Assembly: GCA_031425655.1 (NCBI GenBank)
Contig: JANPJS010000070.1
Location: forward strand, 1 to 64,000
Source of the DNA: Abditibacteriaceae bacterium
GTDB lineage: Bacteria; Armatimonadota; Abditibacteriia; Abditibacteriales; Abditibacteriaceae
DNA: 64,000 nucleotides
Direction: 5' to 3'
Below are positions 3,121 through 29,573 of the stretch, one piece after another. Position numbers and translations under genes: made by a program. Within the stretch, counting starts at the first letter, position 1. Every line of letters begins with the position of its first letter. The notes beneath the pieces are model-generated. The model did no database searches and was not told the origin of the DNA. It worked only from the letters and a program-made list of their open reading frames with translations.

Positions 3121-3292
3121 TCGGAGGTTTGAAACCTCCGGCAGCCGGAGCATAGCTCCCAGTTCTCGGAGGTTTGAAACCTCCGGCAGCCGGAGCATAG
3201 CTCCCAGCGTGCTTCGCACGCCCTCAATTATTCCTTTTGTGTGCAAAGCACACTTGGCACAGCCGCATGCCGGAGGTTTCAAACCTCCGACG
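3121..3292. repeat. REP-like palindrome cluster (3 core copies)
   Basis: CGGAGGTTT(G/C)AAACCTCCG hairpin x3, with conserved flanks GCAGCCGGAGCATAGCTCCCAG and GTGCAAAGCACAC. Confidence 0.9.
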
Positions 3293-3297
3293 ACCTT

Positions 3298-3798
3298 TCA
3301 TTCCGGCCACCAGATTTCAGGGGGCACAGGCAAAAGCGGGGCAGATTCGTCGGGAATTGTAAAATCGAGGCTCTCCACACTGTCCCATAGCGTTGCGTTG
3401 AGGTGATGTTCTTTCTGAAAGCGAATATAGCGGGAAACTTTCGACACATCACCCCGGCTGACACTAAATGCTGCATAGTTATCTTGCCAACCCGCCGCGC
3501 CGCCCACGACATGATCGCGGGCAAAGGCCGACGAAGTGCCTTTAGCACGCTTCATTAGCTCCGCCAGCGTGGTCTGCGAATTCATACACACTAACAGATG
3601 CACATGATCGGGCATTCCGCCGATGGCCCAAACCCGACAGCCGCAATGCGCAACCTGCTGCGCAATGCAGCGATAAACCGGCGTTTCCTCTTCAACTGTC
3701 AACCACGGAGTGCGCCGGTAAGTTGCCCAAACAAAATGAACGAACACATCCAAGCGCGAACGGCTGCGGCGCGCTTCGGGAATCAAAAGATCAGGCAT
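3298..3798 (-). mobile_element. tnpA: IS200/IS605-family HUH (Y1) transposase, REP-associated (RAYT-like)
   Basis: HFVWAT, GGMPDHVHLL (HUH), WQDNYAAFSVS and YIRFQKEHH motifs; REP clusters on both sides. Confidence 0.88.
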
Positions 3799-3813
3799 AT
3801 TATTTTGCTTTCA

Positions 3814-4011
3814 TCGGAGGTTTCAAACCTCCGGCAATCGGAGCATAGCTCCCAGCGTGCTTCGCACGCCCTCGATTATTCCTCTTGTGTGCAAAGCACA
3901 CTCGGCACAGCCGGATGCCGGAGGTTTCAAACCTCCGACGCCCTCAATTATTCATTTTGTGTGCAAAGCACACTTGGCACAGCCGGATGCCGGAGATTTT
4001 AAATCTCCGAC
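3814..4011. repeat. REP-like palindrome cluster (3 core copies)
   Basis: Same hairpin units as 3121-3292; the last copy overlaps the stop codon of the YhcG-like gene. Confidence 0.9.
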
Positions 4012-5027: not shown

Positions 5028-8000
5028 TTAGAAATCCTCCATCCAACAGCGCAGCAGTGGTTTCACTCCGGCAGGCGGCTGCAAACTTCGCATCAACCCG
5101 TCGCGCAATTGCTTTTCGACCGCCCGGCGCACATCGCCCAGCGTTTCTTTTTCGCCCGAACTGCGGCGCGGCGTGCCGGGCGCGCAGCGAATAAATTCGG
5201 CGATTTGCGCCGGAGCATCGAGTGTTTTCTTCGATTCCAAATCGTAAAGCAGCCACAAAACCGGCCCGCCGTCGTGCGTCCATTGTTCGCCTTCGGGCCT
5301 CGTTTCGTCTTTATTCGGCAAAACGTAGCAGAAAAACACGGCTCGCGCCCCCGGCTGAGGATGCGCTTTGCAGGAAAACACGCGTCCGGGAAGCGCATCG
5401 AGCTTGGCGGGCAGTGCTTCATCTTCGGCAGCCAACTTTTGCCATTCGAGCGAAAGCGCTTCCAGCGGCGATTTTGCCGGTTCGAGAAGCTGCGTAAAAT
5501 CGCGCAAATCGTCGTAATCGTCATCGGGCGTGAGCAGCTTTTTGCCCTCGATGCCCAGCGTTTTGGAAATTCGCAGCGTTTTCTGCGTGACGCGCTTGTA
5601 AAGCTTAAGCAACTCGTCGAGTTCTTCGGGCGGCAGGAAATTCCAATACGCAACCCGATTATTATCGCCGCGCTCGGCAAATAAACGCGGGTTATCGTTC
5701 ACGATTTGCGCTTCGATGTCGGGGTTCATGCGCCGGTCAACGCGGCCTATGCGCTGCATCAGGCGCACCGGATTCCAGTGCAAATCGTAATTTATCAGGC
5801 GCGTGGCGTCTTGCAGGTTGAGGCCTTCGCTTAACACGTCGGTTGAGATTAGAATCTGCGTTTCTTTCCAGCCGCGCTTTTTCAGTTCGGGCGCCGACAG
5901 CCCGTTGTAATACGGCGCGAAACGCCCGATGATTTCGTTGCGCGTGTTCTTGGAGCCGGAGTCAATTTCGTCCACGCCCTCAAAGCCTGCCTCGTTGAGC
6001 TGGTTTTGCAAATACTTCGCGGTGTCCGAAAACTGCGTAAAAATCAGGACTTTTCGCTCTTTCAATTCTTTTTTCAGCAGTTCTTTCAAGCAGCGCAACT
6101 TGTCGTCGTTGGCCGGCTTGAATTTGCGAAGCTCATTGAGAAATTCGGCGATCTGGTTGAGGTCATTGAAGCAATCTTCGATGATTTCATCCACTTTATA
6201 AGCCTTGCGGTCGAGCCTTTCGGCGCTGTTTTCGCTTTCCGGCTCGGCGTCTTCCTCACTTACGGCGCTTTCGCGTTCGCGTTCAGCGTTTTCGCGCTGC
6301 GTTTTCAAACGCTCTTCGTTCTGGCGCCGCGCGCCGGGCAAAATCGTGTCGAGATAATCCAGACTGGCGCCGTTATCGCGCTTCCAGCGGTCGAGGCGCT
6401 TGGTTTCGGCGCCGGGTTCGGCGTAGTCTTCGACCCAGTTCAGCAGCTTGACCATCAGTCGCGCGCAGGAGCTTTCAAAAGCGCACGTCGAGGATTCAAA
6501 GCGTTTGAGAAAGTTAGTGCGAATCAGCCCGACAACTTGTTGCTGCTGGTTTTCGACGCGCTTATCCTGCGCCAAAAGCCGCGCTTTTTCTGCGTCCCTG
6601 GCATAAGCGAGGGGATAATAAATCGCCAAAGCAAAGAGCGGATTCTTGCCGTTAAAAGCATCTTCGACTAATTTCAGCAGCTTGCCGTAGGTCTTTTTTA
6701 CCGAATAAGCGGCCACTTTAGGCGCTTCGCGGTCGGGGAAAAGTTTGAGATGATCGCCGTCTTTGCCTTGCGCCAAGGCTTCCTGAAGCTGGCTTTCGCG
6801 GGCATAAGTGCGCGAACGCTGCACCACGAGCGCCTCGAAAATTTTAGCGCCCTGTAGCACAGCTTCGGCTTCGATTTCGTTGGTATCGAGCGCCAAAGCC
6901 TGTTGCTGCGAAACCGGAAGACCGCGCACTTCGCCTTCAAGCTTTTTTTCCAGATCGCCAAAATAAGTCGGCAGCGAATGAATGCCGAGCTTGGGAACGA
7001 AATAATTGGGATCGTTGCGCGTAAACAGTTCGATCATGTGCTGAAAATCGCGCAGTGAGTTGTTGACCGGCGTGGCCGTGAGCAGAAACATTTTTTTGCC
7101 GGCACAAAGCCGCGCCAGCTTGCGATAACGCGATTCGCGCGATTTTTCGGCGCCGGGATTGCGAAAATGGTGCGCCTCGTCAATGACAATCGCATCCGCC
7201 TGCGTCGCCACTTCTTCCCAGAACTCTTCCCAGGTTCCGCCGCCTTCGCGCGGCCCGCTGCGGCCCAAATCGGTGTGCGAACACAAGCGCAGGCCGCCCC
7301 ACGCTCCAAACGCGCCGGGCAGATATTTTTGCAGAGTAGCTTCCCAGACCGGCTCTTTGGCGGCTTTGGGCGAAAACAAAACCACCTTTTTGCGGTCGTG
7401 CAAAAGCCTTTCAATCACCATCATGCCAACGAAAGTTTTGCCCAAACCCACGCCATCGCATAAAAACGCGCCGCCGAACTTATCGGCAATTTGCATGAGC
7501 GAAGCGTAGCCGTCCTGCTGATATTTGGCGAGAAGAGGCCAGATTTTCGATTGCGTTTTCTCCCATTCTTCAACATCCGGCACATGATTGCGCATCAGTT
7601 CGCGCAGGGCGCGGGCGTAAATCTCGAAGGGCGCATACTCCGTCGTGTGGCGCTGAATGGTTTTCAGAATATCTTGCGACACGTCTTCTGCGTCGTCCCA
7701 GTGGCGCTCATACCATTCCTGCAACTGATCCACTTCTCGGCGCAACTGCACGTTCAGTTCAATGTTGTCCGACAGTCCGGGAAACGTGAAATTGGAGGAG
7801 CCAACCAACGCCGCCGAGCCGACCACGCGCGAACGGGCATGAGTGATATAGGCTTTGGCGTGAAACTTTTGTTTGGCGTAAACGCGACACTCGATTTTGC
7901 CGCTTTGCATCGCTTCCACGATGGCGGGCACGCCGGACAGAAAATCGTTTTTTTCTTTTTCTTTTTCCAGCGAAGCGTCTAAAACCGCCGTGGCGCGCTG

Positions 8001-19872: not shown

Positions 19873-21339
19873 ATGGCTAAAGAAAACAGCAAAGGGCATT
19901 CGGAACACACCAAAGAAGCGGAAGCCAAAGGCTTGGCGGGCGTCATGCGCCGTCCGATCAAAATCACCATGATGGGCGCCGGCAGCGGATTTACGCCGCG
20001 CCTTGTCAACGATGTGATCGAAATTCCCGGCAATATGGGCGGCACCATCGCGCTCGTGGACATTGACACCGACCGCCTCAAAACGATGGAGCAGCTTATC
20101 AACAAGCTGTTTCAGCAAAAAGGCAAAGACAACTGGAAAGTTATCGCTTCGCCCGACCGTCGCAAGGTTTTAAAAGGCAGCGATTACATCGTCAATTGCA
20201 TCGAAGTGTCGGGAACGGCCTGCGTGCGCCACGACAACGATATTCCCGCCAAATACGGCATTGACCAGTGCATCGGCGACACCATCGGGCCGGGCGGCTT
20301 GTTCAAATCGCTGCGAACCATTCCTGTTTTCCTTGAGGTTTTGCGCGACGCCGAAAAGCTGTGCCCGAACGCGATTGTGCTCAATTACACCAATCCGATG
20401 AGCATGATGTGCCTCGCAGCGGGCCGCACAAGTTCGATGCCGGTTGTCGGCTTGTGCCATTCGGTTCAGGGCACCAGCCACTTGCTGGCGGGCCGCGCCG
20501 GTGTGCCGATTGACGAAATGGTCTGGGAATGCGCCGGAATCAACCATCTGGCGTGGTTCACCAAGTTGCAGCACAACGGCAAGGATTTGTATCCATTATT
20601 AAAGGAAAAAGCCGCCGCCGATTTGGAAAAAGCCATCGCCGAAGGCCAACCCAAAGCCAAAACCAAAGATAATAAGCACTTCGACGTGCCCGAACATCAC
20701 CGCGACATCGTCCGCAAGGACATGATGCTGCATTTCGGCGCGTTTATCACCGAATCGAGCGGACATCTTTCGGAATACCTGCCCTATTATCGCAAGCGCA
20801 AAGATTTGCTGAAAAAATATGCGCGTCCCGGTTATGATGGCGGCTCCAGCTTCTACGCCGACAACTGGCCGACGTGGCGCCAAAACGCCGACAAAGACCG
20901 CCTGGCGATGGTCAACGGCGAAAAAGAGATCAACTGGGAGCGCAGTTGGGAATACGCCAGTTGGATCATCGAAGCGCGCGAAAAAGACGTTCCGTTCCGC
21001 ATTCACGGCAACGTGATGAACGAAGCCAAAGGCGGCGGCCCGCTGATTTCCAATCTGCCCAGCGACGGCTGCGTCGAAGTCGCCTGCATGATTGACCAAA
21101 ACGGCATCAACCCGACGACCTACGGCAAACTCCCGCCGCAAATGGCCGCGCTGTGCGACAGCAACATGAGAATGTTCGACTTGGGCGCGACGGCTGCGAT
21201 GGAAAAGTCGAAAGAAGCCGCCATTTACTCGCTGATGCTCGACCCACTGACTGCCGCGATGTGCAGCCCGGCGGAAATCAAGCAAATGACGCTCGAAATC
21301 TTCGACGCCGAAGCCGAGTTTCTGCCCGGCTATAAATGA
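19873..21339 (+). CDS. melA: Glycoside hydrolase family 4 (NAD+-dependent alpha-galactosidase, MelA-like)
   Basis: KITMMGAGS, IGDTIGPGG, LNYTNPM, GLCHSVQ, AGINHLAW, TESSGHLSEY and LMLDPLTAA motifs. Confidence 0.9.
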   Translation: MAKENSKGHSEHTKEAEAKGLAGVMRRPIKITMMGAGSGFTPRLVNDVIEIPGNMGGTIALVDIDTDRLKTMEQLINKLFQQKGKDNWKVIASPDRRKVLKGSDYIVNCIEVSGTACVRHDNDIPAKYGIDQCIGDTIGPGGLFKSLRTIPVFLEVLRDAEKLCPNAIVLNYTNPMSMMCLAAGRTSSMPVVGLCHSVQGTSHLLAGRAGVPIDEMVWECAGINHLAWFTKLQHNGKDLYPLLKEKAAADLEKAIAEGQPKAKTKDNKHFDVPEHHRDIVRKDMMLHFGAFITESSGHLSEYLPYYRKRKDLLKKYARPGYDGGSSFYADNWPTWRQNADKDRLAMVNGEKEINWERSWEYASWIIEAREKDVPFRIHGNVMNEAKGGGPLISNLPSDGCVEVACMIDQNGINPTTYGKLPPQMAALCDSNMRMFDLGATAAMEKSKEAAIYSLMLDPLTAAMCSPAEIKQMTLEIFDAEAEFLPGYK

Positions 21340-21356
21340 TCTTGGACACAAGACGC

Positions 21357-21393
21357 AAAAACGGCGGCTCTCTTGACGAGAGCCGCCGTTTTG
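21357..21393 (+). terminator. Intrinsic (bidirectional) terminator after melA
   Basis: AAAACGGCGGCTCTC-loop-GAGAGCCGCCGTTTT. Confidence 0.85.
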
Positions 21394-21414
21394 ATTTCCT
21401 GCTTTTGCATCAAT

Positions 21415-22092
21415 TCATTGCTTTTCAAAGCGGGCGATGCGCCGCTCGATGTCCTCCACGACTTCGCGCACAGATTGCAAATCATCGGCGCTCAGATGCT
21501 CTTTTAATTCATCGAAGAGAGGCGGCAAAGCGGGGCGATACGATTGCAAAAGGGTCGCAACATCGTTTTCGTATAAGCCCACGCGCGCGAAATTTCTTAA
21601 GCGATAAAGCGCCGGCAGCGCGTAAAGTTTGAGGAGTAGCAAGCCGTTGACCGTCGCGCAGGCGATGGAGCGCTCAACAAAAGGCTGCCGCGTGGCCTGA
21701 TGGCGGCGCACGTAATCGAAAAGGCGATTGCGCGTCAGCAAAAAGTCAATGCGAAGTCCGCGATATTCGCCGCGCGCGAAATCGTCGTCCTGATGCGAAA
21801 TGGCAATTTCCGGCAATTTTCTCAAATCGGAAATGGCAACAATCAGATCAATATCTTCGGTGTTGCGCCCTTCCATGTATTGCAAAAGCGCGATGCCGCC
21901 GACCAGTAGATAATCAACCTCGCGCTCTTCCAGCAAGGCGAATAATTCGCTAACGATTTGGAGCAATGGTTCCATATTTTCGATTTCACCCATGCCGCGC
22001 TGCGATGCGTCGCGCCAGTTTTTGAAGTTAAAAACCCGCGCGTTTCGCACCACTTCGCCAATATGAACCGATCTAGAAAGAAGCGTCGCCAT
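21415..22092 (-). CDS. Nucleotidyltransferase-like protein (cassette 1 cargo)
   Basis: LVGGIAL...RNTEDIDL NTase motif; LLLLKL; start codon uncertain. Confidence 0.7.
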   Translation of the reverse strand: MATLLSRSVHIGEVVRNARVFNFKNWRDASQRGMGEIENMEPLLQIVSELFALLEEREVDYLLVGGIALLQYMEGRNTEDIDLIVAISDLRKLPEIAISHQDDDFARGEYRGLRIDFLLTRNRLFDYVRRHQATRQPFVERSIACATVNGLLLLKLYALPALYRLRNFARVGLYENDVATLLQSYRPALPPLFDELKEHLSADDLQSVREVVEDIERRIARFEKQ

Positions 22093-22184
22093 CGTGCCAA
22101 AAGTTTAGCAAGCGCCGGTGAAGCCGACACAGCGCCCTCAAAACAAACAGGCCACTGTCGCGGCTCTTTGTTTAACAACACTTC

Positions 22185-22298
22185 TACGCCCTGATGCCCG
22201 ACCCGCTGACTGCCGCGATGTGCAGCCCCGCTGAAATCAAGCAGATGACGCTCGAAATCTTCGACGCCAAAGCCGAATTTCTGCCCGGCTACAAGTAA
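22185..22298 (+). repeat. Direct repeat R1 of the melA 3' end
   Basis: Encodes YALMPDPLTAAMCSPAEIKQMTLEIFDAKAEFLPGYK*; matches the melA end (about 21226-21339). Confidence 0.95.
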
Positions 22299-22363
22299 AG
22301 CTGCAGAGTTAGAATAAGAGCGTGAACACCTTGCGTGTTCACGCTCTTATTTTTGGAGGCGCC

Positions 22364-22555
22364 ATGAAATCCCCGCACCTTTCCGTCTTTTTTTCGACGC
22401 TTTGTGTGATGGCCGCATCAAGCGGTTTCGGTGCTGCCTTGATGCTGCTCTTTCCGGGAAGGCTTTCCATCCCTTACTTTTTCTTTGTTGTGGCCTTTCT
22501 CTTCTCTTTACTGTCGCGCCGATACAACTCCACGAAGCCAGAGAAAAGCAGATGA
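22364..22555 (+). CDS. Small two-TM membrane protein (cassette 2 cargo)
   Basis: GGAGG RBS; MKSPHLSVFF...; its stop falls inside repeat R2; preceded by the hairpin AATAAGAGCGTGAACAC...GTGTTCACGCTCTTATT. Confidence 0.55.
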   Translation: MKSPHLSVFFSTLCVMAASSGFGAALMLLFPGRLSIPYFFFVVAFLFSLLSRRYNSTKPEKSR

Positions 22556-22605
22556 CGCTCGAAATCTTCGACGCCGAAGCCGAATTTCTGCCGGGTTACA
22601 AATAA
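22546..22605 (+). repeat. Direct repeat R2 of the melA 3' end
   Basis: Encodes KQMTLEIFDAEAEFLPGYK*. Confidence 0.95.
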
Positions 22606-22693
22606 TTTTTTCGCCACAATGGCACAGGAGCATAAAGAATCCTCTCTTTGTGTCCCTGTGCCTTTGTGATGAAATTGCAACAGTAGGTTCGAC

Positions 22694-22907
22694 ATGGCAA
22701 TGCACGCTTCTCCCGCAAAACTACCCCGCGCCGTTCGCAAGCAGGTCGCGCGTCCCCGCAAACTCAAAGAACCAGTCAGCGCCCGCGAACGCCTTCTCGC
22801 GGCCTTGTCCGCCGCGCCACGACTGAGCGCCCCCGACGCAGACCGCATCAATCAAGCGGTGCAGGCCGCGCGGGAGGCTTCGCTTGGCGACGACCTTTCT
22901 GCTTGCA
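22694..22907 (+). CDS. Putative antitoxin (cassette 3 cargo); natural stop apparently lost through a 1-nt insertion
   Basis: Small ORF directly upstream of and overlapping a PIN toxin; as sequenced it reads on to 22951. Confidence 0.55.
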
Positions 22908-23304
22908 CACCAATATCATCACGGCTCTGGCACAAGGCCACAGCACGGTGATGACGCATCTGCGCCAATTATCCCCGGACGATGATATTGGAACCTGCTT
23001 CATTGTAGTCGGCGAGTGGGAATACGGTCTGCTGAACGCTAAGGCCATGGCAAAGCAGGCTCAAATCCGCGCCACCGGAGCGCCGCTGTTTGCCGCCCTG
23101 ACCGCCATTTGGGATTCAACGCCCGCTATTGCTTTGCGCTACGGCGCCATTCATGCGGCGCTTCGTGCCGACGGCCAAATGATTCCCACCAACGATATTT
23201 GGATCGCCGCCACCGCACTGGAACAAAACGCTACCGTCGTCACAACCGACCCTCATTTTCAGCGAGTAGCAGGATTAAATGTTGTAGATTGGACGCAGCC
23301 GTAA
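22884..23304 (+). pseudogene. vapC: VapC/PIN toxin with a +1 frameshift near the start (cassette 3 cargo)
   Basis: IVVGEWEYG, NDIWIAATAL and VTTDPHF motifs; GGAGG RBS plus TTG at 22884; deleting C22906 restores FLLDTNII. Confidence 0.8.
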
Positions 23305-23339
23305 CCGACATCCAATCTACGGACGGCGCGAACTCCAGC

Positions 23340-23426
23340 GCCGCGATGTGCAGCCCGGCGGAAATCAAGCAAATGACGCTCGAAATCTTCGACGCCGAAG
23401 CCGAGTTTTGGCCCAGCTATAAGTAA
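23340..23426 (+). repeat. Direct repeat R3 of the melA 3' end
   Basis: Encodes AAMCSPAEIKQMTLEIFDAEAEFWPSYK*. Confidence 0.95.
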
Positions 23427-23439
23427 AACGCGCCAACAT

Positions 23440-23477
23440 AGAAAAGCCCGCCGCAAAGGGTCGCGGCGGGCTTTTCT
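23440..23477. terminator. Bidirectional terminator after R3
   Basis: AGAAAAGCCCGCCGC-loop-GCGGCGGGCTTTTCT. Confidence 0.85.
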
Positions 23478-23493
23478 ACAAGCTGGCCAATCC

Positions 23494-24057
23494 TCAAAAA
23501 TAAACAGCCCGTTTTCCTAACGTAATAATCACCGCTTCGATGGCCTGATTGACGGAGTTCGCAATTTTGTCGTCCGCGTGATTATAGAAAAAAGTGTCGG
23601 GATTCCACATCTTGAACTTCACTGTTGTGCCCTTTATCCTCATTTCTACTTCCACTTCCTGTCCGTCGCAGGCCAGCCAGTATCCCTTCCCTTGCTTTGC
23701 TGGACGTTTATTCAGATCAGCGAAGTATTTCTGATAGTCAATCTTCGGCAGCTTCAGTTTTTCTAAGCGGCGCACCAACTGAATACTGGAAAACGTCCCC
23801 AGTTCGGAAACTTTCTGGTTTTTGCCTGTAATCTGCACAACCTTAATTCCTTGATAGTTTGAATAGACAGTAAGCACGTTCCGAGGCCGTCGAAAATTCG
23901 GCAGGTCATCGGCTCCTTTGGTGATCTCGAAACGCGCGATAAGAACTTGCTTTTGTTCCGGATTCGCTTGCGCTGTCACGGAAGTTAGATTGGCCAAGAA
24001 CGCCAAAAAGGTGAGAAAGATTCTCACTGCGATGTTTTTAGAAATTGAAAGTTTCAT
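23494..24057 (-). CDS. Hypothetical secreted protein, low GC (cassette 4 cargo)
   Basis: Signal-peptide-like N-terminus; 187-aa ORF. Confidence 0.7.
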   Translation of the reverse strand: MKLSISKNIAVRIFLTFLAFLANLTSVTAQANPEQKQVLIARFEITKGADDLPNFRRPRNVLTVYSNYQGIKVVQITGKNQKVSELGTFSSIQLVRRLEKLKLPKIDYQKYFADLNKRPAKQGKGYWLACDGQEVEVEMRIKGTTVKFKMWNPDTFFYNHADDKIANSVNQAIEAVIITLGKRAVYF

Positions 24058-24118
24058 AAATGCTCACACCGTGCATGATTTCCTTGTTTGACCGAGTATA
24101 TCTTATGATTTTGTTCCA

Positions 24119-24205
24119 GCCGCGATGTGCAGCCCGGCGGAAATCAAGCAAATGACGCTCGAAATCTTCGACACCGCAGCCGAATTCCTGCCGGGTTATA
24201 AATAA
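24119..24205 (+). repeat. Direct repeat R4 of the melA 3' end
   Basis: Encodes AAMCSPAEIKQMTLEIFDTAAEFLPGYK*. Confidence 0.95.
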
Positions 24206-24220
24206 CGCGTCGAAAAAAGC

Positions 24221-24258
24221 AAAAAGAGCGACAAAACCAAAGTTTCGTCGCTCTTTTT
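24221..24258. terminator. Bidirectional terminator after R4
   Basis: AAAAGAGCGACAAAAC-loop-GTTTCGTCGCTCTTTT. Confidence 0.75.
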
Positions 24259-24289
24259 CGTGACGCTTTCAAAGGCATTTTCAGTTCGC

Positions 24290-24733
24290 TCACGGATGCA
24301 AGGGCAGAGGCGGCACGAAATCGGGCAATTTGAATTCATACATCGAGCCGCCGAGCGACGCGCGGCTGTGTTCGTATATGGAGAATCGCGTGGTCGCCAG
24401 CATTTCGCGCGACAAAGCGAACCAGTAAACAACGGTGTCTTTTTTGGTTTCGCCGGCCACCTGAGTGGAGAGCAGCAGCTTCGCGGCGTTGCGAATTTCC
24501 AGATTCGCCGTGCGTTTTATCGTCCATTGATGATCGGCGGGGAATTTTTGCTCCTTGTCCAAATAGCGCGTGATGGTGAAACCGAAGGTGCCGTCCGGGC
24601 GCTTGGCGGTTTCAACCGTGATGCCGTCCTCTTTTGTTGACTGCGGTGTGACGGTTTGCACGGAGATCAGGGCGAAGGCGGGAACGCTGATTAACGACAA
24701 CAAAACGGCGGTGGCAACGAAACGGATTTTCAT
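24290..24733 (-). CDS. Hypothetical secreted protein (cassette 5 cargo)
   Basis: Signal peptide MKIRFVATAVLLSLISVPAFA; AGAGGA RBS. Confidence 0.7.
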   Translation of the reverse strand: MKIRFVATAVLLSLISVPAFALISVQTVTPQSTKEDGITVETAKRPDGTFGFTITRYLDKEQKFPADHQWTIKRTANLEIRNAAKLLLSTQVAGETKKDTVVYWFALSREMLATTRFSIYEHSRASLGGSMYEFKLPDFVPPLPLHP

Positions 24734-24899
24734 GGCGACATTTCCTCTTTTTGGCGCGGCACGTCAGGCCGCAATCAACGACCTCAATAGAATTAAGTAT
24801 GTTCCACAAAGACGCTCCGACAAAAGATTTTAAAAGCCATTAGCTGTTAGTTTCTTTGTGCCTTTGTGCCTTTGTGCCTTTGTGGTGAAATGAAATCCC

Positions 24900-26405
24900 G
24901 TGACCGATTCCTCTTCTAAATTCAACGACGCGCATCTGGCAACGGCCAAGCGCGTCGTTTTATTCACAGTTTTCCTCGATATTCTCGGCTTCGGCATCAT
25001 CATTCCGCAATTGTCGGTTTACGCCGCGCAATATTCGGCCACGCCGGAGCAAATCGGGCTGCTCGCCTCGTCGTATTCGGCGATGCAGTTTCTCTTTGCG
25101 CCGTTTTGGGGGCGCTTATCCGACCGCATCGGGCGCCGTCCGGTTTTGGTGTGGAGCATCTTCGGCACGGCGCTCGGCTATGTGCTTTTCGCTTACTCCG
25201 GCTCATTGTGGATGCTTTTTGCCGCGCGCATTTTAGACGGCATCACGGGCGCCAATATCTCGACGGCGCAAGCTTATTTATCGGACGTGACGCCCGAAAA
25301 AGACCGCGCCAAAACCTTCGGATTGTTCGGCGCGATTTTCGGAATCGGCTTCGCCATCGGGCCTCTTATCGGCGGAATGCTGGCCAATTTGCCGGCGCCG
25401 TGGGGCGGCAACTTCGGGCTGGGCTGGTTCACCGCCACGCTCAGCTTCATCAACTGGGGCTTCGCTTTGTTGCGCCTGCCCGAAACCCTGACGCCCGAAA
25501 CGCGCCGCGCCAACGCCGCGCGTCAGCACGAGCAAGGCAGCAAATTCTCGATTATCAACCTGCATGGCTTTCGGCGCGCTTTTGCCATTCCCAGCCTGCG
25601 CCTCGTGCTGATTACAAGCTTTATCGGCACCCTTGCGTTTGCCACGCTGATGGGCACTTACACCACCTTCATTTTGGTGCGCTACGCCCGGCCCGAAGTG
25701 CAGCAGCAAATCAAAACCAACACGCAAAAAGCGGTCGTCGAAGCGCGAACGCACATGAGTCACAACGAAAAACAAAGCGGCCCGCACAGCGAAGGCGGCG
25801 CGCCGATTCCCGGATTACACGACGACAAACCGTTTGCCACAGGGCTGGGCGGCGATTTCACTTTAGATAAACCGCCGCCCGAAGGCTTATCGTGGCGGCA
25901 AGTGGAAAAGGTGCTGGTGCGCTACCGCACGACGGAAATGGTGAGTTGGATTTTCACCATCATCGGCGTGTTGGCGCTGATTGTCCAGGGAGGCCTGATT
26001 CGTCCCTTGAAAAAGCGCTTTTCCGACGTGAATTTGATCCTTCTCGGCACCTTTTTAGTAGCGCTGGCGCTGGCCTTAGTGCCGCTTCCGCACCAATTCG
26101 GCTGGCAGTTCCCCGGCGCGATGCTGATGGCGATTGGCAACGGCATTTCGTCGCCGATTTTGACTGCGATGGTCTCGCTTTTGGCGCCCGAATCTGAGCG
26201 CGGCGAAATCATTGGCGTGTTTCAATCCACGCAAAGCCTCAGCCGCATTTTAGGGCCGCAACTGGGCGGCATTCTCTTCGGTGTCATTTCGCCAAGTGCG
26301 CCTTATTTTGTGGGCGCCGCGATTATGATGATTTCTTTCTATGTGGCGCTGGGCCTGCGCGGTGTGAAAATCGAAGGCGCCGAATCCGCGACCGCCAAAG
26401 CCTAA
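24900..26405 (+). CDS. MFS transporter, TetA/DHA1-like
   Basis: DILGFGIIIP, WGRLSDRIGRRPVL (motif A), GFAIGPLIGG; about 12 TM segments. Confidence 0.9.
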   Translation: MTDSSSKFNDAHLATAKRVVLFTVFLDILGFGIIIPQLSVYAAQYSATPEQIGLLASSYSAMQFLFAPFWGRLSDRIGRRPVLVWSIFGTALGYVLFAYSGSLWMLFAARILDGITGANISTAQAYLSDVTPEKDRAKTFGLFGAIFGIGFAIGPLIGGMLANLPAPWGGNFGLGWFTATLSFINWGFALLRLPETLTPETRRANAARQHEQGSKFSIINLHGFRRAFAIPSLRLVLITSFIGTLAFATLMGTYTTFILVRYARPEVQQQIKTNTQKAVVEARTHMSHNEKQSGPHSEGGAPIPGLHDDKPFATGLGGDFTLDKPPPEGLSWRQVEKVLVRYRTTEMVSWIFTIIGVLALIVQGGLIRPLKKRFSDVNLILLGTFLVALALALVPLPHQFGWQFPGAMLMAIGNGISSPILTAMVSLLAPESERGEIIGVFQSTQSLSRILGPQLGGILFGVISPSAPYFVGAAIMMISFYVALGLRGVKIEGAESATAKA

Positions 26406-26437
26406 TTTCGGCAAACGATTTGCGTGGCGCCGCCGCG

Positions 26438-27481
26438 ATGAAAATTGACACCGATTTTTTACTGAAAACCCTGCTGCGCTTGGTCAATACGCCCAGTCCG
26501 GCGGGCGATACGCAACGCGGCACCGATTTATGCCACGAAATTCTCTGCGACATTGACGATTCGTTTGATATTCACACCACGCGCAAGGGCGTTTTGGTGG
26601 CAACGTGGCCGGGCTTGCGCGATGATGAGCCGCGCGCCGTTTCGGCGCACATTGATACCATCGGCGCAGTCGTCAAAGGCTTCAACCCGGACGGGCGTAT
26701 TCTGATGCAGGAAGTCGGCAGCCTGCCGTGGACATCGGTGGAAAACGAAGGCGTCACTATCAACGGCAAAAACGGCCCGTTGCGTGGCAGCGTGCTGATT
26801 AAGGAAGCCAGTTACCACTTGCACGAAGAAGACGAAATCGAAGACGCGCCGCGTAACGACCGCACGATGTCGGTGCGTCTGGACGCCAAAATTCACAGTG
26901 CCGCTGATACGCGCGCTTTGGGCATCGAGATCGGCGCTCCGATTTATTTCGATGCGCGCCCCGAAGTGAACAACGGTTTCGTGCGTTCGCGCTACCTCGA
27001 CGACAAAGCCTGCTTGGCCTGCGTTTTCGCGGCGGCTAAAGCGATTTACGAGTCCGGCACACGCCCGGCGCAGCGCACCACGTTTCACATTCCTAACTAC
27101 GAAGAAGTTTGTCACGGCGGCGCCAGCGGCGTGCCCGACGACGTAGCGGAGTTTTTGGCCGTAGACGTGGCTCCTACCGGCACGCGCCAAAATTCGGATG
27201 AATACTCTTGCACGCTTTGTTTAGCCGATGCCGACGGCCCCTACGACGCGCAAATGAATGCGAAATTGAAGGCTATCGCTGTGCAACACGGCGTCAAACT
27301 CAAGCCGGATGTATTCCCGCGCTTTTCTTCGGACGCCAAAGCCCTGTGGAAATCCGGCGCCGATGTGCGCTGCGCTTTAATCGGCCCCGGAGTCCACGCC
27401 ACGCACGGCTACGAGCGCACGACAATCGAAGCCTTAGAAACAACAGCGCGCTTAATCGCACTTTATTTGCTCTCAACGTGA
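26438..27481 (+). CDS. M42 family metallopeptidase
   Basis: PSPAG, SAHIDTIG, RYLDDKA, YEEV, AVDV and THGYER motifs. Confidence 0.88.
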   Translation: MKIDTDFLLKTLLRLVNTPSPAGDTQRGTDLCHEILCDIDDSFDIHTTRKGVLVATWPGLRDDEPRAVSAHIDTIGAVVKGFNPDGRILMQEVGSLPWTSVENEGVTINGKNGPLRGSVLIKEASYHLHEEDEIEDAPRNDRTMSVRLDAKIHSAADTRALGIEIGAPIYFDARPEVNNGFVRSRYLDDKACLACVFAAAKAIYESGTRPAQRTTFHIPNYEEVCHGGASGVPDDVAEFLAVDVAPTGTRQNSDEYSCTLCLADADGPYDAQMNAKLKAIAVQHGVKLKPDVFPRFSSDAKALWKSGADVRCALIGPGVHATHGYERTTIEALETTARLIALYLLST

Positions 27482-27548: not shown

Positions 27549-27623
27549 TGCCCTGTAGCTCAGCGGTAGAGCAATCGGCTGTTAACCGATGGGTCGCTGG
27601 TTCGAATCCGGCCGGGGCAGCCA
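27549..27623 (+). tRNA. tRNA-Asn(GTT)
   Basis: TGCCCTG acceptor stem, TAGCTCAG-CGGTAGAGC D arm, ATCGG-CTGTTAA-CCGAT anticodon arm, GGTTCGAATCC T arm and encoded CCA. Confidence 0.97.
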
Positions 27624-29272
27624 TTCCGTTCGTTAGTTACGAACCATTTTTCGAGGTGTGACTCTTGAGAGTCATGCCTCGATTTTGGTATGTGGTGGAT
27701 TTCTACCCAGAACGACCCATCCGGCAACCACTCAATACGGTTGAAGATCAGCCGCATCAACCTTTGTAATTCTTCCGGCTCAGCCTCCTCAGCTAACTCC
27801 GAGAAACTCGACAAGACATCGCGAAGCGCCGCAGCGTCGGGACGTTGGCGCAAAACTTCCAAAGCGGCCAACCGCTGTTGCTTCTCGATATTAAGCCGCT
27901 CTCGCTGCTGAGTCAGAGCATCTACTTTCTCATTCATCAGGGCCAGCAGGGCATTATTCGCTTTACCTTGACCAATGGTTGTCAGGAAGTTGTTAATCTG
28001 CGCTTCCACTTCCAGCAAGGCTTGATTGGTTAGCTTAAGTGCCTCCGTTTCCGGAGACAGATCCCCTTCAAGTCGTCGCATTGCACCTTCTAAGGCAGTC
28101 TCAATCACCGATTCAGTTGCAGCGAGCCGCCAGATGCCTTGGAGGATCTGAGTCTCAGCTTGCTCGGATAGAACGCGGTTCTTATGCTCGCTCACTTTTG
28201 GTCCGTTCTTGTGCGTATTGGAGCAAGTGTAATAGTGAATTCGAGAAGCAGAACGACGCTTTTCTTTCAGATTCGGCTTATGTTGCACGTAATAGGGCGT
28301 CATCGCATGGCCGCATGTTGCACAATAGAAACGTCCCTGCAATGGATAAACGCGGCCACACTGGTTTCGGGAGTAACTCTTTGGCCTTCCACGGCGATTG
28401 GGGGACAAAAGCGCCTTCTCCCGCCTAATAACCTGTGCTTGGTCGAAGAGTTCCATAGGTATCAAAGGATCGAACGCATCAGCGAGGAGCTGATAAGCCA
28501 GTTGTTCCGGCACTCCCCGCCGTCCGCGATTCTTCTTGTTGATTTCGATACCACCCACATATCGGGGATTCATCAATACGTCTCGAATTGTGCTAACAGT
28601 CCATACAGGCTGGCCGGATGGTGATGGAATCTGATGCGTCTGTAACCACTCGCGCACTTTGTAATCAGAAGCTGTAGCTACGTAAACCTGAAACATCTTC
28701 AACACGGTAGGAGAGGTATCAGGATTTGCATCCAACTTTTGTGTTGTCTGGTTACTGACAAAGCCAAAGGGCACCGCGCCGCCGTTCCACATACCCTTCT
28801 CCGCCCGCATCCTCAGTTTCAGAGAAACCTTTTCGCCCGTCTGCTCGCGATCATATGCTTTGGCTCCAACAAGCATGTGTTCCATAAATCGCCCAGCCGC
28901 TGTGTCTCGATCCGCCTTATCATGCAATGTAACGAACTTCACTCCGTGTGCCCGAAACTCCTGATCCAAAATGAAGAACTCGCGCGTGCGGATAAGGCGG
29001 TCATACCATGTGCAGAGGACACAGTCCGCCTGTTTGGAGGTCACCAACTCACGCAGGCGAGCTAATCCTGGCCGTTTCAAGGAACCAACTGAATAGCCCG
29101 GATCTTGGATCTCCGCTGTAACTTCGTAACCCTGCTCACGACAGTAGGCACGAAGTTCCTCAAGCTGGGAGGCACAACTGGGGTAGTTACCACGAGTCTG
29201 CTCCTGCGTGGAAACACGGGCATAGGTGACAGCGCGCAGACTTTCGCCGTCATCCCGGTCAGATCTCTTCAT
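27560..29272 (-). CDS. Large serine recombinase (integrase); 3' end overlaps tRNA-Asn antisense
   Basis: YARVST (catalytic Ser), RPGL, DRLIR, GGAVPFGF recombinase domain, CATCG...YYTC zinc ribbon and coiled coil. Confidence 0.93.
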   Translation of the reverse strand: MKRSDRDDGESLRAVTYARVSTQEQTRGNYPSCASQLEELRAYCREQGYEVTAEIQDPGYSVGSLKRPGLARLRELVTSKQADCVLCTWYDRLIRTREFFILDQEFRAHGVKFVTLHDKADRDTAAGRFMEHMLVGAKAYDREQTGEKVSLKLRMRAEKGMWNGGAVPFGFVSNQTTQKLDANPDTSPTVLKMFQVYVATASDYKVREWLQTHQIPSPSGQPVWTVSTIRDVLMNPRYVGGIEINKKNRGRRGVPEQLAYQLLADAFDPLIPMELFDQAQVIRREKALLSPNRRGRPKSYSRNQCGRVYPLQGRFYCATCGHAMTPYYVQHKPNLKEKRRSASRIHYYTCSNTHKNGPKVSEHKNRVLSEQAETQILQGIWRLAATESVIETALEGAMRRLEGDLSPETEALKLTNQALLEVEAQINNFLTTIGQGKANNALLALMNEKVDALTQQRERLNIEKQQRLAALEVLRQRPDAAALRDVLSSFSELAEEAEPEELQRLMRLIFNRIEWLPDGSFWVEIHHIPKSRHDSQESHLEKWFVTNERNGCPGRIRTSDPSVNSRLLYR

Positions 29273-29573
29273 TTCTTTCTCCCAACTGCTCATTTGAGCT
29301 AAGAGCTGTCTCCCGCTTTTTAAGAATACGCAAGGCAATCCCACCCAAGATGTCCGCTATTGCGTCATGACGCTGGCTCGGCCTCATGAAATCACCAGAC
29401 AACTGTGCGAATGCCCGGTCGGAATCCAATTTGAAAACCACGCGCTCAGGCTCGTAAGCCAACTCTTTAGTCGGGCTGGGAATGGCTGACATAACTACGC
29501 CAGAACCAACCCCAGGCCTATCAATGTGAAAGCCGATGACCTTAATCATGAATTCCATCTCCTTTAGTCGCAT
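29259..29573 (-). CDS. Hypothetical protein upstream of the integrase
   Basis: 104-aa ORF overlapping the integrase start. Confidence 0.45.
   Translation of the reverse strand: MRLKEMEFMIKVIGFHIDRPGVGSGVVMSAIPSPTKELAYEPERVVFKLDSDRAFAQLSGDFMRPSQRHDAIADILGGIALRILKKRETALSSNEQLGERNEEI

Follow-up and report, generated by a model that had tools for sequence, protein, structure and literature searches.

The melA-like gene considered here lies on the plus strand at positions 19873-21339 of the window, by which we mean the whole stretch of 64,000 nucleotides (nt) that was analysed, part of contig C70 (JANPJS010000070.1) in the draft genome G000 of an Abditibacteriaceae bacterium. Downstream of this intact gene, on the same strand, stand four 5′-truncated copies of its 3′ end (57-114 bases). 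We propose, with a probability of about 0.6, that these copies, R1 to R4, are displaced melA-like 3′ ends that were shunted downstream when the corresponding end of a related strain, together with cargo genes, was added by recombination, and that no dedicated recombinase took part. Allele comparison at this locus and codon counts over the whole genome show that the orphans once served as working ends of diverged alleles; each is followed by downstream DNA of its own. A comparable arrangement was found at about 30 ordinary genes of the same genome.

The draft genome comprises 5.98 Mb in 327 contigs and is 97% complete; the window has a GC content of 55.1%. All three available genomes of the same genus (G001, G002 and G003) were used for comparison, two of them being fragmentary at the melA locus, together with G005, a genome of another genus in the same family, and L038, a metagenome contig.

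The melA-like gene and the four copies of its end

The product of 19873-21339 carries the Pfam domains Glyco_hydro_4 and Glyco_hydro_4C of the GH4 α-galactosidase-like enzymes. Since its score against the NCBIfam α-galactosidase model PRK15076 (464.9 bits) falls just below the cut-off of 486, we label the gene melA-like. Its orthologues in the three same-genus genomes are 91-93% identical. The last 114 nt of the live gene (21226-21339, stop TGA) served as the reference copy of the repeat. R1 (22185-22298, 114 nt), R2 (22546-22605, 60 nt), R3 (23340-23426, 87 nt) and R4 (24119-24205, 87 nt) all lie on the plus strand and all end in TAA. A block of 21 nt is invariant in all five copies. A pattern search allowing at most three mismatches returned exactly these five copies and nothing in each of 100 shuffles, and the melA tail occurs at this single locus in the whole of G000. 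Homology among the five copies stops at the stop codon, and the 60 bases that follow are unrelated in all five. Each displaced end thus has a downstream sequence of its own, with four distinct hairpins and five distinct cargos across the array.

A preliminary description of this DNA had noted that the terminal codons EFLPGYK* are written differently from copy to copy, and the codon strings it quoted were correct on recheck. It had also reported few amino-acid changes, which holds as well: R1 carries L>P and E>K, R3 L>W and G>S, and R4 A>T and E>A, R2 has no amino-acid change at all, and R1 carries in addition S>A, the residue of G002. An even spread of differences over codon positions would have counted against that description; the variable columns among the five copies number 5, 3 and 11 at positions 1, 2 and 3 (binomial p = 0.024). 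Likewise, the count of synonymous against non-synonymous differences that it had called for gave 17 : 5 single-difference codons between the gene and the orphans, plus two codons with multiple differences. The codon bias at melA is real and, on melA alone, statistically modest.

The copies fall into two allele classes, one G002-like and one G003-like, both of which exist today as working ends in sister species. R1 matches the functional G002 tail at 101/111 positions and the live G000 tail at 100/111, R2 at 55/57 and 52/57, and R4 at 79/84 and 78/84. R3 is the orphan nearest to the live end (80/84 identical), and both the live G000 tail and R3 share GAG, TTT, CCC and TAT codons with G003. The six amino-acid changes other than S>A are private to the orphans, being absent from all six functional tails that were compared. 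When differences were polarised against the majority of G002, G003 and G005, all seven non-synonymous changes, S>A of R1 included, fell on the orphan side, and the 17 synonymous ones split into 11 on the functional side, five on the orphan side and one ambiguous case, the polarisation being a parsimony procedure that is error-prone at silent sites. The distal part of the live tail is G003-like and the body of the gene is nearer to G002 (86.7% versus 82.1%); these few sites hint that the live tail is the incoming piece. Taken together, the melA data fit the idea that the ends originated as alleles, and are insufficient as proof alone.

Gene order in relatives places the intervening DNA. In G005, melA has a single tail and is followed within about 300 nt by genes for an MFS transporter and an M42 peptidase, so that the 3.5 kb lying between melA and the MFS gene in G000 is added DNA. 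The cassettes are thereby shown to be insertions relative to the melA-MFS-M42 arrangement. G003 retains, 145 nt past its functional melA stop, an 84-nt remnant (83% identity) of the convergent 147-amino-acid (aa) gene that adjoins R4 in G000; beyond that remnant its neighbourhood is rearranged. The melA contig of G001 ends 10 nt inside the repeat, which fits an assembly break caused by repeats and does not prove it.

Scans of the genome and metagenome collections with the 21-mer and a degenerate form of it yielded four genome and 13 metagenome loci, of which two contain melA, namely the G002 contig and L038; the other 15 lack melA and were rejected as chance matches. On L038 the melA gene is 70% identical to that of G000, and a second melA tail lies 3.4 kb downstream. 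The insert between the two tails measures 3.3 kb, has three genes, no recombinase and a GC content of 45%, compared with 61-64% in the flanks. The tails differ at 16 bases, 12 of them at third positions, which gives 12 synonymous and three non-synonymous codons. As a separate observation on this contig, the hairpin that stands right past the live melA stop (2546-2600) recurs about 175 nt past the orphan stop (6055-6270), so that the two alleles appear to share an ancestral terminator and to be set apart by an indel of about 165 nt.

Orphan gene ends across the genome

A comparison of G000 with itself was restricted to local direct-repeat pairs of 40-2000 nt with at least 78% identity and at most 15 kb apart, and returned 273 pairs. 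In 35 of these, one copy belongs to a long open reading frame (ORF), with the end of the repeat no more than 6 nt from the stop codon, and the second copy stands downstream as an orphan. The reverse geometry occurred in six pairs, all of them tandem paralogues. Offsets between repeat end and stop codon cluster, 41 of 101 lying between -10 and +9 nt. Repeats on C74, C147, C13 and C37 had been considered as orphans and were rejected as tandem paralogues.

For the codon analysis, 51 pairs were considered in which the stop of a long ORF lies within the functional copy, and the 31 that are ungapped and have their boundary within 12 nt of the stop were used; seven of the 38 pairs with a boundary at the stop were gapped and stayed out of the codon counts. 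Over the 30 nt past the stop, identity in the 31 pairs was 0.13-0.57, mostly near 0.3, which is close to random. The orphan retains a stop at the homologous place in 25 of 31 cases, and the stop codon is unlike between the two copies in 21. Differences numbered 50, 41 and 132 at codon positions 1, 2 and 3 (p = 2.5e-15), and 45, 38 and 114 after removal of melA. Single-difference codons were synonymous in 117 and non-synonymous in 54 instances, with a further 24 multi-difference codons. Random single-base changes would be synonymous in 23-29% of cases, and a local duplication with a drifting orphan and a selected live copy would give about 43%. Set against the latter figure, the ratio of 117 : 54 (p = 1.8e-11) leads us to reject a local duplication whose orphan copy then decayed neutrally. 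Two dubious pairs rich in non-synonymous differences, C24 (which overlaps an attC-like hit) and C143, were kept in these counts and dropped for the naming of host genes and the tail-motif search; the ratio becomes 112 : 39 when both are removed.

Outgroups were used to polarise the changes at melA, glnA, a DUF1501 gene and an Mrp-like gene. Over these four loci, changes on the orphan side were 14 synonymous to eight non-synonymous (p = 3.5e-4 versus the 27% synonymous expected under neutrality), and 9 : 1 without melA. At the DUF1501 locus, 10 of 171 bases distinguish the orphan from the live tail; eight of the 10 are third positions, and one amino acid is changed. The two copies are 94% identical to each other and 82-87% identical to those of any sister species; being nearer to each other than to a sister species, they point to a near relative as donor. 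The preliminary description had held that the melA copies derive from alleles once under protein-level selection and not from local duplication with neutral decay. That proposal is supported by the variants shared with sister species and by the synonymous excess throughout the genome, and we infer that each cassette arrived with the gene end of its own donor.

Besides melA, 28 host genes were named, and most are conserved core genes. They include genes for glutamine synthetase (glnA), CTP synthase (pyrG), LepA, an HflX-like GTPase, a peptide release factor, SecA, the large chain of carbamoyl-phosphate synthase (carB-like), pyruvate carboxylase, an Mrp/NUBPL protein, an Fe-S assembly protein, a proteasomal-type ATPase, and sugar and sulfate enzymes. 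Between live ends and orphans, 73 cargo ORFs were collected at 30 loci. Among them are HicA, PIN and DUF3368 proteins, a NotI-like nuclease with a D12 methylase, a type III Mod/Res pair, an HNH nuclease, a UDG-like protein, surface-repeat proteins and many ORFs without a family. The type III restriction-modification (RM) pair lies at C306:29501-36274, where the host gene encodes a SecA of 2257 aa and the orphan is found 6.3 kb downstream, behind the pair. Orphans of 31 of the 35 pairs measure 42-127 nt, and the other four 177, 252, 471 and 722 nt.

Sister species carry traces of the same arrangement. For glnA in G001, the orphan bears a hairpin of the ancestral type, common to the functional ends of G000 and G003, and the live end has a different hairpin followed by a Calx-beta gene; this is what displacement of the resident end by an incoming one predicts. 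In G002 it is the DUF1501 gene that has an orphan, a decayed one. On the strength of these two cases we regard the same genes as hot spots across the genus. Separately, the start of contig C326 (1-2825) has the 3′ end of a 110-aa gene in four copies, with cassettes of 0.5-1.3 kb between them, a displaced-end architecture with a small accessory gene as its host.

Mechanism, rival explanations and known systems

Under the reading that we favour, DNA of a related strain, consisting of a melA end and the accessory genes behind it, would be added, with the conserved gene end supplying the homology, and the resident end would be shunted downstream at each addition, one after another. Two routes may be envisaged. 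A circular piece of tail plus cargo could enter by a single crossover of the RecA type, as in the model for rhs loci, or, in homology-facilitated illegitimate recombination, a homologous crossover in the gene could be paired with an illegitimate joint that falls within the resident tail. Both routes are inferred, and either may have been taken. The newest end would then be the one next to the gene, and R4 with the 147-aa gene the oldest part of the array, R4 being likely the oldest resident end. Once displaced, the orphans would decay, and the private amino-acid changes would have arisen in this way. It is doubtful that the tails are, beyond this, working recombination sites of an integrase-free 'homology integron', where RecA crossovers between tails would release circles of one tail plus cargo that re-enter relatives at the same gene.

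Several results weigh against displacement by incoming ends. The codon counts between gene and orphans at melA are not independent, because the copies share variants, and the polarised test on melA alone (five synonymous to seven non-synonymous changes on the orphan side) is not significant (p = 0.20). Short orphans are near or below the length for efficient RecA recombination. No Ku gene was found in the 97%-complete genome, so that circularisation by end joining has no obvious enzyme. Pairs built on gene starts number only five, a rarity that a purely random process does not obviously explain. R3 and R4 have an identical left boundary, which random illegitimate joints do not predict and which could mark a preferred site; the invariant 21-nt block would also fit the core site of a recombinase. 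No excised circle, within-species empty site or transfer event was observed in the sequences at hand. The preliminary description had expected relatives in which each variant tail is the real melA terminus followed by the same cargo. This expectation was borne out in part: the 147-aa gene follows functional melA in G003, which accounts for one cassette of five, in a cargo search that had just 1.95 kb behind melA in G002 and a broken contig in G001, and no exact copy of any orphan tail serves as a functional end in the genomes searched.

The shared boundary and the invariant block would both fit another explanation, in which the tail copies would be attachment (att) sites and the cassettes remnant or non-autonomous integrative elements at the 3′ end of melA, each bringing a replacement end and accreting in tandem, as elements do at tRNA genes and in tycheposons. 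Integrative elements that enter the 3′ ends of genes and restore them are well established, and the hot-spot behaviour of the same genes in sister species agrees with this explanation, as does the presence in the window of a large serine recombinase 3.3 kb past R4 and of a tyrosine recombinase at about 46.2-46.7 kb. We nevertheless consider it unlikely. A Pfam scan found no recombinase gene between 21340 and 24899, and none of the 73 cargo ORFs at 30 loci matched an integrase, transposase or resolvase family at E ≤ 1e-4. The whole genome has six tyrosine-recombinase and six serine-recombinase matches, none of them inside these cassettes, and these 12, one of which is an integron integrase, would have to serve about 29 target genes. 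Moreover, the tails have no common motif: among the 29 host-gene tails no shared k-mer emerged (the best 6-mer reached p = 7e-4 with 1076 tested, and no 8-mer occurred in four or more tails), and inspection by eye revealed no conserved sequence at the junctions of cargo and orphan or past the stops. Orphan lengths are variable, from 42 to 177 nt in most pairs of the genome and 114, 60, 87 and 87 nt in the melA array, and the copies are 85-98% identical rather than exact. After serine recombinases have acted, only a few bases at their sites are identical.

A true long target duplication made on the spot, with copies that were identical at first, an orphan that drifts and perhaps some resetting by gene conversion, seems quite unlikely. 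Such a process has a documented precedent for RM systems, with duplications of 46-420 bp and no mobility genes (PMC2853133). At melA, repeats of 60-114 nt, an insert devoid of mobility genes and a single site in G005 correspond to its description, which asks for inserts below 20 kb and direct repeats above 30 bp; RM genes (the NotI-like nuclease with the D12 methylase, and the type III Mod/Res pair) are among the cargos of this genome; identity to the live end reaches 96-98% in some orphans; and the polarised test on melA alone is compatible with neutral orphan drift. Blind duplication does not predict, though, that in most loci the homology goes no further than the stop codon, and the synonymous codons exceed what duplication plus drift would give, both over the 31 pairs and on the orphan side at the four polarised loci. 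The melA orphans also share several silent variants with the functional G002 allele, and the stop codons of most pairs are unlike. An assembly artefact, by which strain variants behind melA would have been strung together in a draft genome that is probably derived from a metagenome, is very improbable. The number of contigs, the likeness of the copies to alleles of co-existing strains and the break of the G001 contig inside the repeat, a sign that assemblers struggle here, all lend it something. Each orphan, however, has a unique left junction with non-melA DNA, which a graph mis-join at shared words cannot create; the architecture recurs in the independent assemblies L038, G001 and G002; and the orphans carry private amino-acid changes that functional alleles lack.

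The closest parallel to displacement by incoming ends is found in rhs loci. Jackson et al. 2009 described, for C-terminal displacement in rhs, homologous recombination between core fragments that frees a circle, and re-entry by a single crossover (PMC2935791). In that system, an intact gene is likewise followed by a string of dissociated 3′ fragments with a variable conserved length and downstream genes of their own, and no recombinase is involved. There, the incoming tip is a different toxin domain and the orphans come with immunity genes. Here, by contrast, what comes in encodes an unchanged end of a housekeeping or sugar enzyme with mainly silent differences, the cargo is unrelated (toxin-antitoxin, RM or unassigned), and about 30 unrelated genes of one genome are concerned. 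For the orphan immunity arrays of the type VI secretion system (T6SS) in V. cholerae, Kirchberger et al. 2017 proposed homology-facilitated illegitimate recombination with a conserved upstream anchor (PMC5361080). Modules of other strains are added serially there too, the resident end being displaced and its downstream part kept; those arrays consist of effector-immunity modules only, and selection retains old immunity genes, whereas host gene and cargo have no apparent functional connection here. The architecture works like the C-terminal displacement of rhs, contact-dependent inhibition (CDI) and T6SS loci and is not a polymorphic-toxin locus. In such a locus the copies would have a different C-terminal domain with a cognate immunity gene, whereas all melA copies encode the same C-terminus.

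Insertion with long target duplication was described for RM genes by Furuta, Abe and Kobayashi 2010 (PMC2853133). The likeness lies in accessory genes that include RM systems, direct repeats of tens to hundreds of bases and the lack of a mobility gene; many of the cases come from naturally transformable bacteria, and some repeats touch the 3′ end of a gene. The repeats in that work are read as target duplications and are nearly identical. Those in G000 reach no further than the stop codon; most of their differences are silent, and they agree with alleles found in other lineages. Given the synonymous excess, the boundary at the stop codon and the variants of other species, they do not look like copies of the recipient's own target. 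As for competence, a gene for the ComEC channel is present in the genome.

Islands linked to tRNA genes and tycheposons similarly form arrays of cargo modules split by partial copies of a target 3′ end. Such arrays need a defined att core and recombinases of the tyrosine or serine type; neither a recombinase in the present cassettes nor a motif shared by the tails was found. Integron cassette arrays resemble the melA array in having rows of small, mostly promoter-poor accessory genes, often toxin-antitoxin genes, with a repeated separator. Unlike attC sites (imperfect palindromes, RYYYAAC ... GTTRRRY), the separators here are gene ends. The genome does encode an integron integrase (C103, 4883-5809; TIGR02249, 428 bits against a cut-off of 265), with attC-like sites adjoining it at C103 6617-9900. 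A profile built from 17 genomic attC copies gave 66 hits on 31 contigs, including C103, C211, C100 and C243, often single or in small clusters far from the integrase, and none of the 66 falls on the contig of the window.

Cassette contents, neighbouring features and biological meaning

Four of the five cassettes carry a hairpin, following the live gene end, R1, R3 and R4, with stems of 15-17 bp that begin 12-18 nt past the stop. At the gene end it is a perfect 15-nt inverted repeat 18 nt past the stop (21358-21392), after R1 a perfect 17-nt inverted repeat 14 nt past the stop (22313-22351), after R3 a perfect 16-nt inverted repeat 12 nt past the stop (23439-23478), and after R4 a 17-nt inverted repeat with 94% complementarity (24221-24258). 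Since only the R4 hairpin, and that on the minus strand, was picked up by a simple terminator scan, we call all four hairpins and not proven terminators.

Behind the live end, cassette 0 (21340-22184, minus strand, GC 52.3%) has a gene for a protein of 225 aa (21415-22092) that is weakly nucleotidyltransferase-like, its Pfam NTP_transf_5 and DUF6036 scores both being under the cut-off. Cassette 1 (22299-22545, plus strand) holds a putative hydrophobic ORF of 77 aa (22322-22555), which reads into R2 and has no family match in Pfam or NCBIfam. Cassette 2 (22606-23339, plus strand) has a VapB-like ORF (22694-22951) and a VapC/PIN ORF (22903-23304), the latter matching Pfam PIN at 6.7e-16 with every NCBIfam VapC model under its cut-off. 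Compared with an intact VapBC homologue in G002 (73% nucleotide identity), the pair has lost the antitoxin stop and suffered a 1-nt shift in the LLDTN motif that strips the conserved aspartate from the PIN ORF. VapBC at 22694-23304 therefore looks decayed and inactivated. Cassette 3 (23427-24118, minus strand, GC 45.8%) contains a gene of 187 aa (23494-24057) with no family over the cut-off in Pfam or NCBIfam. Cassette 4 (24206-24899, minus strand) carries the 147-aa gene (24290-24733), which has no assigned function and has paralogues in G001, G002 and G003. Beyond it come the two ancestral downstream neighbours, both identified by Pfam and both on the plus strand, the MFS transporter (24900-26405) and the M42 peptidase (26420-27481). 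The motif CTTTGTGCCTTTGTG(G/A)TGAAAT, partly in tandem units of 8 nt, stands before the VapB ORF (22646-22675) and before the MFS gene (24854-24891). It recurs at many sites in related genomes, G001 and G005 among them, and may be a promoter or operator typical of the lineage.

The large serine recombinase already mentioned is the one nearest to the array (594 aa, 27560-29344, minus strand) and lies beyond the MFS and M42 genes. Its ORF extends 64 nt into a tRNA-Asn gene (27549-27623, plus strand), so that its last residues are tRNA antisense, and the locus looks like an element integrated at tRNA-Asn. Elsewhere in the window, direct repeats of 131 nt (94% identical, with a third partial copy) at 3166-4011 flank an ORF on the minus strand (3298-3798), which we take from its sequence pattern to be an IS200/RAYT-like Y1 transposase. 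A long methylase-like ORF encloses the 'tRNA-Stop(tta)' call at 1011-1089, which may be spurious.

Displacement by incoming ends, if correct, suggests that genes can be gained without any enzyme of a mobile element, by a route in which a conserved gene end is the handle and the accessory genes of a relative are added and not swapped. The previous gene end would be left behind as a dated fossil, and the orphans would record past transfers and their donors and mark the places where toxin-antitoxin and RM genes entered. Such a route has been known for polymorphic-toxin loci and, in another reading, for RM genes; here it would mark about 30 ordinary core genes of one genome from a little-studied phylum, the Abditibacteriota. 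For annotation, orphan ends account for short pseudo-ORFs, for contigs that break where a gene ends and for spurious 'repeats'. Should the tails also act as a 'homology integron', core genes throughout the genome would be collecting platforms for defence and toxin-antitoxin cassettes.

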